DNA of 48,933 bases from a virus (taxonomy: Duplodnaviria > Caudoviricetes): IMG/VR virus record IMGVR_UViG_3300011336_000175, positions 1-48,933 of that record; one strand, written 5' to 3'. Of the stretch, positions 20,935 through 34,242 are shown one piece after another; position 1 is the stretch's first letter; every line of letters begins with the position of its first letter. The position numbers and the translations under genes were made by a program. The notes under the pieces were generated by a model. That model was not told the origin of the DNA and did no database searches. It was given only the letters and a program-made list of their open reading frames with translations.

Positions 20935-21520
20935 CTAGGCTCGGCTGGACATGACTCTGCCTAGGGGAGAGAGTATCTCCACCTAGGCGTTTGTCCACAT
21001 CCTCGGAGCCGTAGCTTAGTATCCGTGTGGGCTGACATCAATCCAGCTTGTGTCAACTCTGAATGCTTTCCATCGCTTGGCAATGTCTAGCTCGGCCATT
21101 CAGACCGTTGCCGCCACCCGCAGACTGAACCACGGACAACAACGGAACTCCCCCGATTGCACCTTGCATCTTCCAGTGCTCTCGCCCCAAGACGGAACGT
21201 TGTAGGGTTGGTGGACTCTGCGCCAGCATGGGACTTCTCCCAAGTTCAAACAGTTCCCTCGTGCCAACCCAAAACCCGATAGTTTCTTGAGGCAAGCAAG
21301 GTGTGGAGATGAGACTGAGACTGCTCACATGAAGCAGTGTTTCGTCCTAAAACTAGAAGCAAATGATGGCGCTAACCCATCACCAGTCCCAGTCTCAAAA
21401 ACAAAAAAGCCGTTAATGAAACCCCGGTGGAAAAACACATCAGCTTTTGGCTGACGCGCTACCCCAGTCGGGGTCGGGACTTCATTAACGGCTCTACTTG
21501 CATTGGTTTCCACACCTAGC
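20935..21520 (-). ncRNA. Candidate large structured non-coding RNA or leader
   Basis: No convincing ORF; at least 10 nested stems, with mismatches resolving to G-U only on the minus strand; own promoter. Confidence 0.65.
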
Positions 21521-22003: not shown

Positions 22004-22032
22004 TTGCAAAATTAAAATGTAGCAGGTAGAAT
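22004..22032 (+). promoter_or_regulatory. sigma70-type promoter TTGCAA-N17-TAGAAT upstream of the GGYNN array operon
   Basis: -35 at 22004-22009, -10 at 22027-22032; overlapped by TACCTGNTRCA boxes. Confidence 0.75.
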
Positions 22033-22056
22033 CTATACCATGCTGACTGGTTTAAT

Positions 22057-22397
22057 GGAGCGGTTCGGTTGGGCATGGCAGAGCGAAGACTGGCTCGGTT
22101 GGGTCTGGCTAGGCAAGGAACTGGAGACAGTCGATAGGGCATTCATTGAGTGCCACTTCGAGTGTTAGGCACGGTCGGGCAAGTCTCGGCACGGTGAGGA
22201 GAGGCGGGGATAGGCAGGGCACGGCACGGAAAGGTGCGGCATGGAGCTAGAAATAGTCGATAGGGTATTGGCAACAGTACCACTTCGAGTGTTAGGCAGG
22301 GATCGGTACGGTGAGGCAGGGTCTGGTTCGGCAAGGGCTAATGTAGCGGCTATGAAATTGGAAACAGTTTCATGGTCGATACAAAGTGTGTATCAAT
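22057..22397 (+). ncRNA. Array of three putative guide-RNA units: (GGYNN)n tracts plus conserved hairpin linkers
   Basis: Tracts at 22057-22121 (13 pentamers), 22168-22247 (16) and 22295-22339 (9); 35/38 pentamers start with GG; linkers 22122-22167 and 22248-22294 are homologous with compensatory changes. Confidence 0.85.
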
Positions 22398-22410: not shown

Positions 22411-22980
22411 ATGAAATCTATTAAAGTAAAACTCTCAGGCTCATCTGCTTTACTCATGCACTCTGATCGCTTTGCGAACCCGTTAGACCCACTGACCAAG
22501 GCTCACAAAGAACTGACAGGCAAGCGCAAGAAAACTGACGATGACCATATCGCCATTGCTAGAAGTGAATTTATTGGTGGCTGCTATTGGAATGAAGACA
22601 CTGGCTTCTTTATTCCTGCACAAAACCTAGACTCATGCCTGATCGCGGCGGCTAAGCTTCAGAAGCTTGGCGTTAAATTCAAGCAAGGCGTTCAGGTATT
22701 GGAAGACGAGCTACCCATCGACGGCTTTAAGTCCGTCACTCCAGAGAAGCTTTGGGAAAACCCAAAGAACGTGGATGCCCGTGGCGTTAAGGTAGGCATG
22801 GCCAAGATCATGCGCTACCGCCCCATCTTTCGCAACTGGTCACTGTCTGCCACGGTGATGGTGAATGAAGATGTAGTTAACCTCAATGAAGTTAAGAAAG
22901 CTTTGGTTGACGCTGGCAATTTGATTGGCTTGGGTGATTACCGTCCCCGCTTTGGCCGTTTCAATGTGGAGTTTGCATGA
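22411..22980 (+). CDS. Stand-alone RAMP/Cas7-like protein, putative RNA-guided effector
   Basis: 189 aa from ATG 22411 (AAGGA RBS); N-terminal strand IKVKLSGSSALLMH, IPAQNLDSCL..AA helix, RYRPIF..WSL, C-terminal Gly-rich loop AGNLIGLGDYRPRFGRF. Confidence 0.7.
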   Translation: MKSIKVKLSGSSALLMHSDRFANPLDPLTKAHKELTGKRKKTDDDHIAIARSEFIGGCYWNEDTGFFIPAQNLDSCLIAAAKLQKLGVKFKQGVQVLEDELPIDGFKSVTPEKLWENPKNVDARGVKVGMAKIMRYRPIFRNWSLSATVMVNEDVVNLNEVKKALVDAGNLIGLGDYRPRFGRFNVEFA

Positions 22981-23459
22981 GCGACAATCCAAAACTATTC
23001 CCCGCTTGGAAGCAGGCAGTTAAAACTTTATTGGACAGCGGCCTTACATACGGAAGCGTACTCAAGCGCAGTTACATTTCCGAATTGTGTGATGTGCCAA
23101 AGCCAGTAGACATTGACGATGTTCGCAGGTATGACCTTGAAGTGCTTCGCTGTATTACAGAGATTAAAGACATTCTGCTGACAGCCCACTGCATGCTAAT
23201 GGTCAGTGACCATGCAGGCAACTACATCATCATTGAGCCTGAGTCACAAACTCAACACGCCGTTGATGCAGGTGTTAAAGCAATCGGTCGAGAGATGAAG
23301 CGCATGGCTATGGGCGTGAGCTTTACCAAGACTGAACTACTCACAGACGAAGGCCGTAAGAAAAACGCAGATGCTCAGGCAAAGATCTCAAAGCTGGCCG
23401 GAATGCTAAGCCTTGAGAAGCGTGAGCTTCAGCGTATAGCAGACAGGAGTCAGCCATGA
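22977..23459 (+). CDS. Hypothetical protein coupled to the RAMP-like gene
   Basis: 160 aa, ATGA overlaps on both sides. Confidence 0.75.
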   Translation: MSDNPKLFPAWKQAVKTLLDSGLTYGSVLKRSYISELCDVPKPVDIDDVRRYDLEVLRCITEIKDILLTAHCMLMVSDHAGNYIIIEPESQTQHAVDAGVKAIGREMKRMAMGVSFTKTELLTDEGRKKNADAQAKISKLAGMLSLEKRELQRIADRSQP

Positions 23460-28823: not shown

Positions 28824-28842
28824 AAATGATTAATGATTTCTA
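28821..28842. promoter_or_regulatory. 22-bp palindrome copy (inverted) at a convergent gene junction
   Basis: gTAGAAATGATTAATGATTTCTAc; supplies the TAG stop of both convergent genes. Confidence 0.75.
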
Positions 28843-31800
28843 CTTCAGTGCCTTGCGAGTATCTTCAGCTTGCTTAGCCAGCATGGAGATCAACTCCTTC
28901 ATCTGGTCAATCTGCTCCCGCTTGGTAGATCCGTCCAAGCTGGTGTCGTTAGTCACTACAGAAATTTGCTTACGGATGTTGGCCATCTGCTTAGATGTCT
29001 GGCTATACATCTTCTGAAGGGCAACTTTGTCACCCTTCTCTTCCATGATCTGCTGGACTTTATCCATATCACCGATCTCAGCATAGTGACGCATGTCAGC
29101 AAAAGCTTGTTGGATCTGCTTGTTGTTCTCATAGAACGCAGTCGTGTACTGAGACATGTTAGACGGCAGCGTCTTGACGAATCCAAGGCTGGCTTTGTCC
29201 ATCCACTGGGTATCTGGGTAAGCACCCTCTTTAAACGGCATGACTGCGTACATAGAGGTAGTAGCAACTGTTCCGCCAAGCCAACCAAAGTAGCCCTTAA
29301 TAGCATAGTCCACCTGAACTGGGCTTAACTCTGCTTTTTCTGGAAGACCAAAGCTAAGGACATTTGCTAATCCAATAGCCAAAGGACTTGTGGTGTCAGC
29401 TTTGCGTTCAGCTTTAGACAAAGCCTCCATACCGGCAGACTCAATAGGCGCACCAGTGAAGCTGTCTTTGTTAGCGTACAAATCCACAACAGGCTTGATA
29501 ACCTGTGGGAGTGGATTCATCGCAAATGTATCTAACATCATTCGGCTAAGAGCACTTGTGAACTGCTTGCCTTCTGCATTGGCATCAAAGATTTGTTCGG
29601 CTGTACGCTCCGCAATAGTTCCAAGAGCACCGATCTCAAACGGCTTAGGAATACGAAGAGCCGCTTCCATACCGGGTAAACGTATCCACCAGAAGTTATC
29701 TCTATCCCAGTCACTGCGCTTCTGGAACTCTTCGTCATCTTTGAATGCACCGTACAGGGCAAGCGAAGCAAGGCAGACTGCACTCGTGATGATAGAGAAA
29801 GCCTGAGCCTTCTTCTTATCGTCAAGGTCAATCTCTTTACCAGTCAGTGAGTTGTAGAACACACGGCTCGTAGGAAGAATGCCATCACGACCAAGTTTAT
29901 ACAAGCCTTGAATACGGGCGTTCATAAATGGTACGACCTGAGTCAAGTAACGGAATGCACCAAACGATCCTTGCATGGAGAAGTCCATCAAGTCACGGGC
30001 TTGGAAAGAAGCTTCTAAGTGAGAGTAACCTTTCTCGCGCAACTGGTTGTACAGTGCCATGCGGTTAGCAGCTTCAGACTTGTTACCTAGTTCTTCATAC
30101 TTTTCAAACAACTTAGACAAACCAGATTTAATCTTGTCTGGTGTGTCTAGAATGTCAGATTCTTTAACACCTTTAGCAATCAGTCTCTTGACCAGCTTAG
30201 ATTGATTACCCTCATAAGCCGTACCAAAGTTAAAGATTGCACCACCGGCCAGAGCAGAGATGTGTGCAGGGTTATTCTTGTCAGTATCCATCCATCCTTG
30301 CACAACGTTGGCAAAAGGATTCTTACTTAAGTCAGACACAGCCATAGCCTGCACTGAATCACGGAACAAGTTGTTTACCTTGAACGCAGGAGACATCGTA
30401 ACGCCGTACTGAAGCATGTTCTTAAAGTTACGAGACACATCTAAGAATTTAGACTGTGGCCCTAAGTATCCAATAGAAGTAATTGACTCAAGCAAGAGCG
30501 GATCTTTGATTGTGAAGTACTGGTTCTTGCCGTCAACTTTAACGGCCACCGTATCTTTACCCGGCTCAGACGCAGGTTCCACAGCACCCAACTTGGCGGC
30601 ATCTTTAAGTGTAGTAACAGCAGCTTGGTTCTTCATCGACGCAGACAGGATGTGACTCCAGTTACGCAGAGTGTTCTCCATCAAATCGCCAAACGGACGA
30701 TCACCACCACCCTCTAAAGCTTTAGAGAAATTTTGGCGGGTCAAGCCCGAAGGAGTTTGTCCACCTTTAACATCTTCTTCCATTTGACGATAGAACGGAA
30801 TGTAGTACATGTCACCAGCAAAATTATCGTAACTTTTTTGGTCTATCAAACCCTGATCCAAAGCAACATCAAGCACTGACTTGTTAATTCCGTTCATGTC
30901 TTTCAAAACAGAGTTATACAGATCAAGCCTTGACTTGCCGTTGATAGTTCCTTCAGCTAGCTTGGCACGATTTGCAACCAAGTAATCCATGTTATCGCTG
31001 CGTGAACGCTGATCGTCTGGCAAACGTGACTCTCGGTTTAGTGCAACCCACATCTGGTAGCGGTCAACTTCATTACCCAAAGGTTGTAAAGCTTCAATCA
31101 AACCTTTTGTGTTTGGCTTGATATTCAAAGCACCGCCGTCATTAAATACATGACCGTGGAACATGATGCCTTCAAGTGCCCCGTCAACAGTCTTAGACAG
31201 GCGAGCTTGCATGTAGCCAACAGGCGAGTAGTCTTTGATCGTGCGGTACTGGTCAGCAATACCCTGAGCCAAACGTTGCCAGAACCGATCCTGCATGTCG
31301 GTAATTTTCTCAACAATCGTTCTGCTCTGTGGTTTAAATACTTGGTTAGAAGCAGTAACAAACTCAGGGGGCAAGCCGGGAAGATTCTGAGCGGTCAGAG
31401 GTTTGTTCTTCTGTAAGAAAGTAGAAACTTTTTCTTTGACTTGATTGACAGATTTAGGCATCTCCATTTGATCTGTCATTTCCGAGTAGTCAACTTCACC
31501 CTTATCAACTTTAACGCCTTTAGGCTGTTTAGTTTGAGCAAGCCTGTCTACTAAGTTCATCACTTCGGTTAGGGCGTTGACATCTTTAATGCCAAGCAAG
31601 TCAGCTACCATGCGAGTAAACGCTGTCCATGCACTGCGACGACCACCGTAAGAAATCTGCATCAGTTCATACTGAAACTCTGGGTTAGTCATTGCCTCGG
31701 CAGTGAACTCACGCTCGTTAGTCAGGCCGTAAAAATCTTTACCTTGACGGCGCAGTTCTTTCTTAACGTGCTTGTAAAGTTTTTCAATCTGTTCGGCGAT

Positions 31801-34242
31801 AGGCTTTTGACGTTCTGTAGGATAACGCTGCGCCTTAGAGATCAATCCATGCAATGTCTCGTGAGCGTTTGTGTGCTCATCGCCCGCATAAGCTTTGGCC
31901 ATTTGGATAGAGTCATCAGCGTAGCGGTATACACCGGCCACACCAGCACCTACGTTACCGGGTTTCTTTAACTTAATCTTTGTTGATACACCACGACCCA
32001 ACTCACCAATCCGACGGATAGCTGGGTTCTTACTCTTAGCCAGAGTCTCAGCTAACTGTGCAAAGTTTCCCTGTTCATTAGCCGCACGAACCTCTGGATT
32101 GTTTGATGCAATAGGCATCCTTGCTTTGAATTCAGCAAGGTTTTTAGGCATCTCAGTACTGGGAGTAGGTGGCTCAATCTCAACAGGAGGAGGTTCAACA
32201 GGAGGCGGCTCAACCACAGGAGGTCTGCCTGAAGTACCGGGAGCAGGAGGTTCCATCTCACCATACACCTGAGTAGCAGGCTTAGTAACAGGAGGACGCT
32301 CTGGGCCTTCTGGTGTGGGTGTTAGCGTAGCACTAACAGGTAATGTGCGATCACCGCGAGGTTTACCCAAAGGAGCCGCAATAAACCAAGGCTCTCCATT
32401 ACCTTGATAGTTCAAAGGCAAAGGCATTCCTGCTTTTTTCTCTGCTTCAATAGCGGCTTCTACATCTTCACGGGTAACAATGCCAGCCTCAAAGTCTTTG
32501 ACCAGACGCATAGACGCAGGAGTATTTGTACGACGAGCAATCTCCATGTAGGCGTTGACAGGATCAATAACAACCGGAGTCTCAGGCTTGTTAATAGCTG
32601 TCTCAGGTAAGTTCTTGGTGAACTTAACTGGCACATCCAAAGACTGAATGGCAAATCTACCTTCAGCCGTAGGGTGAGGAACAATAGTCAAGCTATTAGG
32701 ATCACCGCCTTGGTTCTTCAACATGTTCTGCATAACCAACAAACGGTTCTTTGCAGCACGTTCTTCAAGGGGACGGTTGTCTACGATCTTAGGTGTAGGT
32801 GTCTCTTCTGCCACAGCAGTAGCAGGCTGTACGCCGGGAGTCTTAGACGACGCACCAGTAGGTAGACCAGCTTCTAGACGTAAACGATCAATCTCAGCCT
32901 GCTTAGCTTCCAACTCTGCACGAGGTGTAGCTTGAGGCATTTGCTCATTAAGACTAGGCTTGCTAGTATCTGGAGTTGGAGCTTCTGGTACTTGAGGAGG
33001 AATACCCTCGCGAGCCGCTTTCTCAGCTTGAGCTTTAGCGTCTGCATCAACCTTTTGCTGAAGCATATTGATACGCTGACGGCCAGCCTCTTCAGCAGAC
33101 AGCATAGGTTGCTGCTCTTGCTGTGGCTGTGCAACACCAGTGATCTCTTCAATTCTTTTAATAATGTCAGGCGTTAGCTTCTCAGGACTAAACCCAGTTG
33201 GTTCTGGTTGAGGAGCAGCAGGCGCGGCAGGGCCACGAGCTAAACCAGCAGCACCACCTAAACCTACACCACCAATGGTGGCCATAGCCGCAGCTTCACC
33301 CAGACCCTCAGTCAGACTCTGCTCAGGTTTGACCTGTTGCATGGCCAAGTTAGAAACAAACTTACCACCAACCTCTTCAGGTATCTCACCAAGTGTTTCA
33401 CCAGCAGCAGTACCGCCAGCCGTTCTAAGACGACCACCAAGACCAGCCGCCCCTTTACCGGGGACACCAGCCAAAGCTTCCTCAAGCTGACGAGCACCGG
33501 GCAGGCGTTGAGCCAAGATAGAAATAGTACCGGCAGCGGCACCAGCTTGACGGGCTAGATTCAATGCACCAGCAGCAGCCTCTTTAGGAGAAGCACCTTT
33601 ACTAATCAGTTCGTTGTATATGTTCTCGTATGCACCAGCACCTACGTCAGCACCCTGCTGAACAGCACCAGATCCAACCGCACCGGACACAGCCGCTTTA
33701 CCAGCCGCAGCTTCAGCCGCACCCAATCCCCTAGCCGCCATGCCCACACCGCGAGCAGACGCAAAAGGAACCAACAACTGAGGTGCTTGCTCTGCCAAGA
33801 AAGACAAGAGCAATGCAGGATCTTTAACAGTCTCACCAAGGGCAGTACCAAAGGCAGATAACTGACCTTGTTGTGCAGACTCAGCAATCTTTCTTGCCCG
33901 ATCAGCCTCACGAGCCTTAAGACCCGCAGACTTCATCTCCTCACCATACTGGGAGATCTGCTCACCAGCACCCAAAGCACCAGTCTTAGAGAAGTCTCCA
34001 GTAGCTAAGCCATAGAGTTGGCCGGGCAGTTGAACTAAGGATCCAATACCACCTATAACACCAGCACCGATGTCTTTGGCAGCTTCTCCAAAAGTACGCT
34101 CTTTAGAAGGAGCAGGAGGCGGCTGACCCGCAGCGGGATTTTTGGCAATAACAGCGGCAATGACTTGTTCTTTAGTCGCACCTGCTGGGCCATCAATCTC
34201 GTATGTCTTTCCATCTGGTGCGGCGATTTCATACGTTGGCAT
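28840..34242 (-). CDS. Large internal virion/ejection (polyvalent) protein
   Basis: 1800 aa; Gly/Ala-rich N-terminus, Pro-rich linker, AHETLHG (HExxH), C-terminal RDNFWW...RIPKPFEIG resembling LPD38. Confidence 0.75.
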   Translation of the reverse strand: MPTYEIAAPDGKTYEIDGPAGATKEQVIAAVIAKNPAAGQPPPAPSKERTFGEAAKDIGAGVIGGIGSLVQLPGQLYGLATGDFSKTGALGAGEQISQYGEEMKSAGLKAREADRARKIAESAQQGQLSAFGTALGETVKDPALLLSFLAEQAPQLLVPFASARGVGMAARGLGAAEAAAGKAAVSGAVGSGAVQQGADVGAGAYENIYNELISKGASPKEAAAGALNLARQAGAAAGTISILAQRLPGARQLEEALAGVPGKGAAGLGGRLRTAGGTAAGETLGEIPEEVGGKFVSNLAMQQVKPEQSLTEGLGEAAAMATIGGVGLGGAAGLARGPAAPAAPQPEPTGFSPEKLTPDIIKRIEEITGVAQPQQEQQPMLSAEEAGRQRINMLQQKVDADAKAQAEKAAREGIPPQVPEAPTPDTSKPSLNEQMPQATPRAELEAKQAEIDRLRLEAGLPTGASSKTPGVQPATAVAEETPTPKIVDNRPLEERAAKNRLLVMQNMLKNQGGDPNSLTIVPHPTAEGRFAIQSLDVPVKFTKNLPETAINKPETPVVIDPVNAYMEIARRTNTPASMRLVKDFEAGIVTREDVEAAIEAEKKAGMPLPLNYQGNGEPWFIAAPLGKPRGDRTLPVSATLTPTPEGPERPPVTKPATQVYGEMEPPAPGTSGRPPVVEPPPVEPPPVEIEPPTPSTEMPKNLAEFKARMPIASNNPEVRAANEQGNFAQLAETLAKSKNPAIRRIGELGRGVSTKIKLKKPGNVGAGVAGVYRYADDSIQMAKAYAGDEHTNAHETLHGLISKAQRYPTERQKPIAEQIEKLYKHVKKELRRQGKDFYGLTNEREFTAEAMTNPEFQYELMQISYGGRRSAWTAFTRMVADLLGIKDVNALTEVMNLVDRLAQTKQPKGVKVDKGEVDYSEMTDQMEMPKSVNQVKEKVSTFLQKNKPLTAQNLPGLPPEFVTASNQVFKPQSRTIVEKITDMQDRFWQRLAQGIADQYRTIKDYSPVGYMQARLSKTVDGALEGIMFHGHVFNDGGALNIKPNTKGLIEALQPLGNEVDRYQMWVALNRESRLPDDQRSRSDNMDYLVANRAKLAEGTINGKSRLDLYNSVLKDMNGINKSVLDVALDQGLIDQKSYDNFAGDMYYIPFYRQMEEDVKGGQTPSGLTRQNFSKALEGGGDRPFGDLMENTLRNWSHILSASMKNQAAVTTLKDAAKLGAVEPASEPGKDTVAVKVDGKNQYFTIKDPLLLESITSIGYLGPQSKFLDVSRNFKNMLQYGVTMSPAFKVNNLFRDSVQAMAVSDLSKNPFANVVQGWMDTDKNNPAHISALAGGAIFNFGTAYEGNQSKLVKRLIAKGVKESDILDTPDKIKSGLSKLFEKYEELGNKSEAANRMALYNQLREKGYSHLEASFQARDLMDFSMQGSFGAFRYLTQVVPFMNARIQGLYKLGRDGILPTSRVFYNSLTGKEIDLDDKKKAQAFSIITSAVCLASLALYGAFKDDEEFQKRSDWDRDNFWWIRLPGMEAALRIPKPFEIGALGTIAERTAEQIFDANAEGKQFTSALSRMMLDTFAMNPLPQVIKPVVDLYANKDSFTGAPIESAGMEALSKAERKADTTSPLAIGLANVLSFGLPEKAELSPVQVDYAIKGYFGWLGGTVATTSMYAVMPFKEGAYPDTQWMDKASLGFVKTLPSNMSQYTTAFYENNKQIQQAFADMRHYAEIGDMDKVQQIMEEKGDKVALQKMYSQTSKQMANIRKQISVVTNDTSLDGSTKREQIDQMKELISMLAKQAEDTRKALK

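Follow-up and report, generated by a model that had tools for sequence, protein, structure and literature searches.

Covarying hairpin linkers of a phage pentamer array, most likely the 3' tails of type II VIPR guide RNAs

The window (the whole 48,933-base stretch of viral DNA analyzed here) contains a non-coding array of three tracts of 5-nt units, each with a structured linker behind it. The array is flanked by a promoter-like site (22004-22032) and by two genes (22411-22980 and 22977-23459), and it raises the question of what the linkers do. A sequence-only reading had taken them for covarying RNA hairpins serving as 3' handles or cleavage signals of + strand RNAs of ~100-130 nt. We find that each linker most likely is the structured 3' tail of one of three guide RNAs (vrRNAs) of a phage type II VIPR locus, because the adjacent genes are homologous to vipr and vap1, related loci carry pentamer tracts as well, and a published vrRNA, ~100 nt long, is built of 9-16 repeats and a structured 3' tail that does not vary (bioRxiv 10.64898/2026.04.26.720920). 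By analogy with that architecture, the proposed role as 3' handles gains support.

Layout and identity of the locus

All parts of the locus lie on the + strand. Guide tract 1 (22057-22116, 12 pentamers) is followed by tail 1 (22117-22167), guide tract 2 (22168-22242, 15 pentamers) by tail 2 (22243-22294), and guide tract 3 (22295-22334), whose 8 pentamers are one below the published range of 9-16, by the terminal tail (22335-22394). Of 35 pentamers in the window, 32 begin with GG, and only 27 are strict GGY. The putative sigma-70-like promoter upstream of the array (22004-22032) matches the consensus in 9 of 12 positions, and similar sequence is found in two relatives (L001 and L037). An inverted repeat (21973-21993/22009-22029) and a 15-nt direct repeat overlap this promoter candidate and represent a possible operator. 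Elsewhere in the window, another inverted repeat (21408-21493; 19 nt, 89% complementarity, 48-nt loop) is situated upstream of small - strand genes, and an 1800-aa protein with the large polyvalent protein domain LPD38 is encoded on the - strand at 28840-34242. Homologs align from 22411, for which reason a 202-aa ORF called from 22372 was rejected, as were short - strand ORFs overlapping the array.

The vipr gene (22411-22980) encodes a 189-aa protein assigned, by homology to SUSP1 Vipr, to the RAMP-family guide-binding proteins. It matches the SUSP1 Vipr structure (PDB 36pp) over residues 1-188 (E-value 5.1e-47) and the SUSP1 protein YP_009199429.1, the accession taken as Vipr in the text of the satellite paper (bioRxiv 10.64898/2026.10.15.759431), at 39.9% (tblastn), and phrog_4652 is common to both. 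The residues H17, K33, R138, D177 and R179, given as RNA or DNA contacts of SUSP1 Vipr in the text of bioRxiv 10.64898/2026.04.26.720927, are all retained, W178 is replaced by Y, and four pocket residues encoded within 22621-22944 differ (E71Q, M72N, C173I, V175L). The vap1-like accessory gene (22977-23459, 160 aa) belongs to phrog_5926, as does the SUSP1 gene behind vipr (pairwise identity 21%, E-value 1e-08). The locus combines five features of type II VIPR, namely an adjacent Vipr (RAMP) gene, pentamer tracts, a structured 3' tail after each tract, a vap1 gene and a viral location (the window comes from a virus record and encodes terminase large subunit, portal, helicase and primase families, i.e. 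it is of phage origin). The hairpins are real, and the array most likely belongs to this known system, with a variant of the tail.

Pentamer tracts were detected in all 49 related IMG/VR loci, in 47 of them upstream of vipr and in 2 only downstream; the same detector recovered the published layout of SUSP1 (one unit upstream, three downstream). Position 3 of the pentamer is A in ~20% of cases in this clade (264/1341; window, L001-L037 and L048) versus 0/40 among the GG pentamers of SUSP1, and the Vipr of this clade may tolerate GGA. One relative (L030) carries, upstream of its vipr array, another array on the opposite strand (~846-1330, - strand), made up of four tracts whose tails belong to the same types. 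A tail-type match (30 bits) was found downstream of vipr, at 2650-2699, in a Rhodoferax MAG contig (L177) that lacks an upstream array.

The similarity to the type II VIPR system of SUSP1, as presented in the texts describing it (bioRxiv 10.64898/2026.04.26.720920; 10.64898/2026.04.26.720927; PDB 36pp), comprises the Vipr homolog with its G-reading and DNA-contact residues, the vap1 homolog, GG-based tracts of pentamers, a conserved structured tail after each of them, location in a phage and a predicted 1-nt skip that falls on the wobble base. The tail of SUSP1 is, however, described in the same texts as a pseudoknot, whereas the tail found here is nested and consists of two or three adjacent hairpins (or of one rod), without a pseudoknot; moreover, all three units lie upstream of vipr, A is common at position 3 and four pocket residues are changed. 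A covariance model of the window tail type (R1) gave no match in the SUSP1 locus (L050). The tail sequence of the P. fulva clade was found neither in a genome scan (6 MAG loci only) nor in the supplement text of bioRxiv 10.64898/2026.04.26.720920. The Pseudomonas VIPR loci LESphi2 (with three upstream units) and Medea1, with Vipr identities of 49-59%, exhibit tails with a similar layout of small hairpin and long stem by eye, too divergent for the covariance model (Medea1: 14 bits; LESphi2: none). The arrangement also resembles CRISPR arrays, whose repeat handles are cut by Cas6, in that RAMP subunits bind a variable guide whose cap is a constant structured element. Unlike in CRISPR, the linkers differ in sequence from one another, the guide has gaps and the "spacers" show a 5-nt periodicity; no Cas1, Cas2 or Cas6 family was found among 20 proteins scanned from the window.

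Fold of the tails

Folding of the three linkers on the + strand gave z-scores of -4.40, -4.45 and -6.27 (0/200 shuffles as stable for each linker), compared with weaker values of -2.47, -1.23 and -3.81 on the - strand. For the comparative analysis, we searched 1 kb of sequence in front of vipr, in the window and in 52 loci, with three regular expressions and kept the distinct tails. This gave 33 tails of the linker-1/2 (internal) type, 23 terminal tails and 36 of a third type that the window lacks. The set comprises only tails fitting one of the expressions; a broader listing of 147 distinct linker rows also contains more distant types and a few tracts that had been split wrongly. Because certain bases in the small hairpins P1 and P3 and at the junction are prescribed by the expressions, the invariance of these parts is partly built in; the middle stem P2 was left unconstrained. 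Complementary bases occupy 97.4% of the paired cells in the linker-1/2 type (64 two-sided changes), 95.5% in the terminal type (102) and 98.6% in the third type (80), with 29-62% in slid controls of the three sets, and the covariation score was reached by 0/500 shuffles in each set; kinship among the tails inflates these covariation tests, and most of the covariation is carried by P2. RNAalifold yields the same fold for the linker-1/2 type unprompted.

The first bases of the tail are the GG with which another pentamer would begin; then come P1 (4 bp), P2 (~13 steps) and a purine-U-purine motif, which in the terminal and third-type tails is paired in the third hairpin, P3. In tail 1, P1 corresponds to 22120-22131, the long stem P2 to 22132-22160 and the motif to 22162-22164; in tail 2, P1 (22246-22257) and P2 (22258-22287) are followed by the same 3' motif; in the terminal tail, P1 (22337-22347), P2 (22348-22377) and P3 (22378-22394) follow one another. 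A U·G pair near the P2 loop is present in 32/33 linker-1/2 tails, 23/23 terminal tails and 28/36 third-type tails. This near-invariant pair favors the + strand RNA, in agreement with the stronger folding of that strand, as had been claimed from the sequence. The covarying hairpins themselves are likewise borne out: the sequences are present, and the folding z-scores, the covariation and RNAalifold agree.

Several details of the sequence-only reading require revision. The outer stem closed by TCGA stands, with 3 bp, and loses its T pair, since this T pairs better as the fourth pair of P1 (31/33 paired: AU 19, GC 9, GU 3) than with the 3' A (broken in 9/33). The last long stem, read as 14 bp, has 13 bp when all three stems form, because its end bases are common with the neighboring stems. 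The GNRA loops of the first hairpin do occur in the window and are no requirement, as the P1 loop sequence varies freely among the linker-1/2 tails of relatives.

The same data bear on the notion that the hairpins have nothing to do with guide function and instead represent terminators, recombination sites at the DNA level or palindromes arisen by chance, to which we assign hardly any probability. The shared linkers probably do aid recombination between arrays; however, no terminator-like site was called on the + strand between 21500 and 23200, and the strand-asymmetric U·G pairs and the compensatory changes across 92 tails speak against a DNA-level or accidental origin. A covariance-model search for more units, which the sequence-only reading had suggested, recovered in the 48.9-kb window the two training linkers, the terminal tail as a weak match (13 bits) and two noise matches, and hence no further strong copy. 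The tract detector reported one weak run of 9 pentamers at 33650-33694 on the - strand.

As RNA tails, the linkers of all three types have a second fold available, a rod in which the purine-U-purine motif is the pairing partner of the P1 3' strand. The predicted median gap between the hairpin state (P1 and P2, with P3 where present) and the rod is 2.2, 0.2 and 1.7 kcal/mol for the three types, and for the third type it is the rod that RNAalifold favors. Column 12 of the linker-1/2 type is a pyrimidine that pairs with column 49 in 33/33 tails (CG 26, UA 4, UG 3) and also with column 7 in 29/31. Column 49 is limited by the expression to A or G, columns 13 and 48 are fixed by it, and no more than three loci supply the four U-A cases, therefore this double covariation is a lead rather than proof of a switch.

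Predicted guide targets and changes of the array

Following the published rule, guides were read by the NN of each pentamer with a 1-nt skip, and a target match was defined by a cut-off of 80% of NN (bioRxiv 10.64898/2026.04.26.720920). Pentamers 1-8 of unit 2 (22168-22207) gave at least 120 matches in IMG/VR with 16/16 NN (about 980 estimated), and 120/120 of the matches listed hit a single protein family, in frame and on the sense strand, where they cover the motif YTRKSTDEGL and leave the codon wobble position to the skipped base. The same bases with a 2-nt skip gave 17 unclustered matches (largest cluster: 2), and control 16-base patterns from units 1 and 3 gave 3 and 6 matches, respectively. 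In one example, the target is a protein with Resolvase and Recombinase domains adjoining DUF2924, and a DUF2924-like motif was found by a rough pattern in 59/80 target loci. The serine of the YTRKSTDEGL motif is the catalytic residue of serine recombinases. Judging from these matches, a DUF2924-linked family of large serine recombinases is the predicted target of the unit-2 block, at its catalytic motif.

The last 7 pentamers of tract 2 do not continue this match (at most 4/14 bases downstream of the recombinase motif), so that the whole guide reaches at most 20/30 NN, below the 80% cut-off. The matching block is the tail-distal part of the guide, opposite to the order in SUSP1, whose pairing intermediates resolve first near the tail according to the text of bioRxiv 10.64898/2026.04.26.720927. 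Unit 2 looks like a chimera by its sequence, and its recombinase half may or may not work. Among 120 matches listed for the last 7 pentamers, the largest cluster has 10 members (a repeated phage-protein motif), a weak lead that is no better than the unit-1 background. For unit 1 we found 3 unrelated matches, 99 for a core from guides of relatives (largest cluster: 12) and 19 scattered matches in metagenomes, all treated as chance, and for unit 3 only 6 unrelated matches and no target. Self-targets in the window with the 1-nt skip (best: 16/24, 19/30 and 12/16) are no better than with other skips, and the window encodes no resolvase domain. Solo vrRNA tails were found beside none of the target recombinases in 80 of the 120 listed loci (~1.5 kb on each side).

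Guides of relatives extend the picture. When 104 distinct guides of the clade were compared with the 120 listed recombinase loci, 16 had an 8-unit window with at least 15/16 matches at the 1-nt skip, versus 0, 3 and 3 guides when other skips were applied and 1-2 upon shuffling. Of these 16 guides, 11 are circular cases, 3 match the same gene at another motif (VVYKIDRL) and 2 seem to be chance matches. Some guides of 9-10 units in relatives match the recombinase nearly end to end. Another guide of relatives matches tyrosine integrases, with the motif HGFRSTFRDW in 120/120 matches listed (Pfam assignment made on one). A further recurring guide block (L016.3, L033.4, L035.3) reads by eye as antisense of a helix-turn-helix motif, which we would liken to AlpA-type regulators. 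As in the case of SUSP1 VIPR against F5 satellites described in the text of bioRxiv 10.64898/2026.10.15.759431, the guide would address active-site codons of a competitor's recombinase with the wobble base skipped; unlike there, the predicted targets are DUF2924-linked large serine recombinases (at two motifs) and, in relatives, tyrosine integrases.

The array had been proposed to have grown by unit duplication followed by NN diversification, and only the former has a counterpart in our data. In one contig of a near-identical relative (run X1), tract 1 is longer by 15 bases (three pentamers), and linker 1 with the start of unit 2 is repeated, resulting in one extra unit. As the main route, duplication with diversification is disfavored by guides that are mostly unrelated: only 2/170 within-array pairs share 5 or more consecutive NN, and the pairs in the window share 1-3. 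The recombinase block, on the other hand, occurs in 18/49 related loci, several of which are near-duplicates (13 distinct tracts including that of the window), in units 1 to 4, at the start or the end of the tract and before all three tail types. That guides are mostly unrelated within arrays while the same block recurs across loci suggests an exchange of modules between phages, with selection conserving the NN, which on these sequence comparisons appears to explain more than duplication does. The arrays are likely to change by duplication or loss of whole units, by 5-nt slippage and by exchange of guide blocks via the shared tails and the GG register. Tracts of 15-22 pentamers in five relatives (L002, L006, L011, L021 and L027) hold two recognizable guide blocks in tandem and may be two-target guides formed by tail loss.

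Presumed processing of the array and its implications

We regard it as very probable that the linkers are the 3' tails of three VIPR guide RNAs that would be cut from one transcript, coated by Vipr and directed at silencing genes of competing mobile elements. The texts on SUSP1 describe a Vipr that binds one pentamer per subunit, assembles into a filament, mediates gapped NN pairing with a 1-nt skip and represses transcription (bioRxiv 10.64898/2026.04.26.720920; 10.64898/2026.04.26.720927). In the window, the candidate promoter would drive one transcript over the array, which would be cut so that each guide ends in its own tail; the tail would cap the guide and end the Vipr filament, and it would also mark the start of the next guide, near 22167/22168 and 22294/22295. 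The guides, once coated by Vipr, would then silence their targets in competing elements. Assembled contigs of RNA runs, which carry no information on transcription or RNA ends, cover the array in run X1 and leave 22053-22286 uncovered in runs X2, X3 and X6.

The VIPR texts (bioRxiv 10.64898/2026.04.26.720920; 10.64898/2026.04.26.720927; 10.64898/2026.10.15.759431) name no processing enzyme for type II arrays, which would suit an array that stays uncut, as one transcript with three tracts in which the hairpins merely insulate separate Vipr filaments. We find this very unlikely, given that the three-unit downstream array of SUSP1 gives rise to discrete RNAs of ~100 nt, that a P. fulva vrRNA is expressed as well (bioRxiv 10.64898/2026.04.26.720920) and that the unit lengths of ~100-127 nt in the window fit the size of the SUSP1 RNAs.

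If the transcript is cut, P2 could be mainly a disposable processing signal, recognized by a host RNase or Vipr or cutting itself, and mostly absent from the mature guide, which would keep P1 alone as its tail. The ~13 steps of P2 and its near-invariant U·G/U-A top despite varying sequence are what a ruler-type nuclease site might look like. In SUSP1 (L050), a hairpin between vrRNA units, outside the pseudoknot tail, has by eye a similar UUC...GAG top and is a possible shared processing signal. We nonetheless consider this role of P2 rather improbable: the linker directly adjoins the next tract, leaving no bases in between, and the terminal unit retains P2 though no guide comes after it. A self-cut by a known ribozyme is disfavored by the absence of any Rfam match at gathering score in the window and by only three weak, unrelated matches, far below threshold, between 21950 and 22450, where no ribozyme family appeared at E-values up to 5; ARAGORN reported nothing at threshold in the window. 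In this respect the array differs from the hammerhead-interspersed VIPR arrays, as Rfam identified no hammerhead ribozyme between the units.

The two predicted folds allow a further, tentative model, which we think is more likely wrong than right by a wide measure: the tail would be a conserved two-state RNA switch, in which Vipr, on reaching the tail-opening GG, strips P1 and flips the tail to the rod, exposing the boundary of the next guide, while the shared tails and the GG register permit swapping of guide blocks. If true, guide loading would be coupled to array processing without Cas6 or a ribozyme, and phages would swap guide blocks against catalytic codons of serine and tyrosine recombinases, a Cas1-free gain of guides.

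VIPR was first described only in 2026, and the texts on it are silent on how type II arrays are cut and on how new guides arise. The texts of four VIPR studies (bioRxiv 10.64898/2026.04.26.720920; 10.64898/2026.04.26.720927; 10.64898/2026.10.15.759431; 10.64898/2026.10.21.760802) describe neither this tail fold nor type II processing nor these targets; their figures, Data S1-S4 and supplementary tables are outside this comparison and may hold the P. fulva tail, the clade or the targets. Our literature search found no other VIPR study. Relative to those texts, a non-pseudoknot tail, its near-invariant U·G pair and two folds predicted to be nearly equal in energy appear to be new.

With 92 natural tail variants of three types, the clade defines a fold distinct from the pseudoknot of SUSP1 and shows which pairs to mutate. 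For engineering VIPR as a repression tool, a scaffold that is shorter or more permissive (A at pentamer position 3) could be relevant. Altogether, the clade offers a snapshot of unit duplication and pentamer slippage, with guide blocks mobile between arrays, and its predicted targets would extend the silencing of recombinases at active-site codons from SUSP1 to two further recombinase families and to environmental phages.
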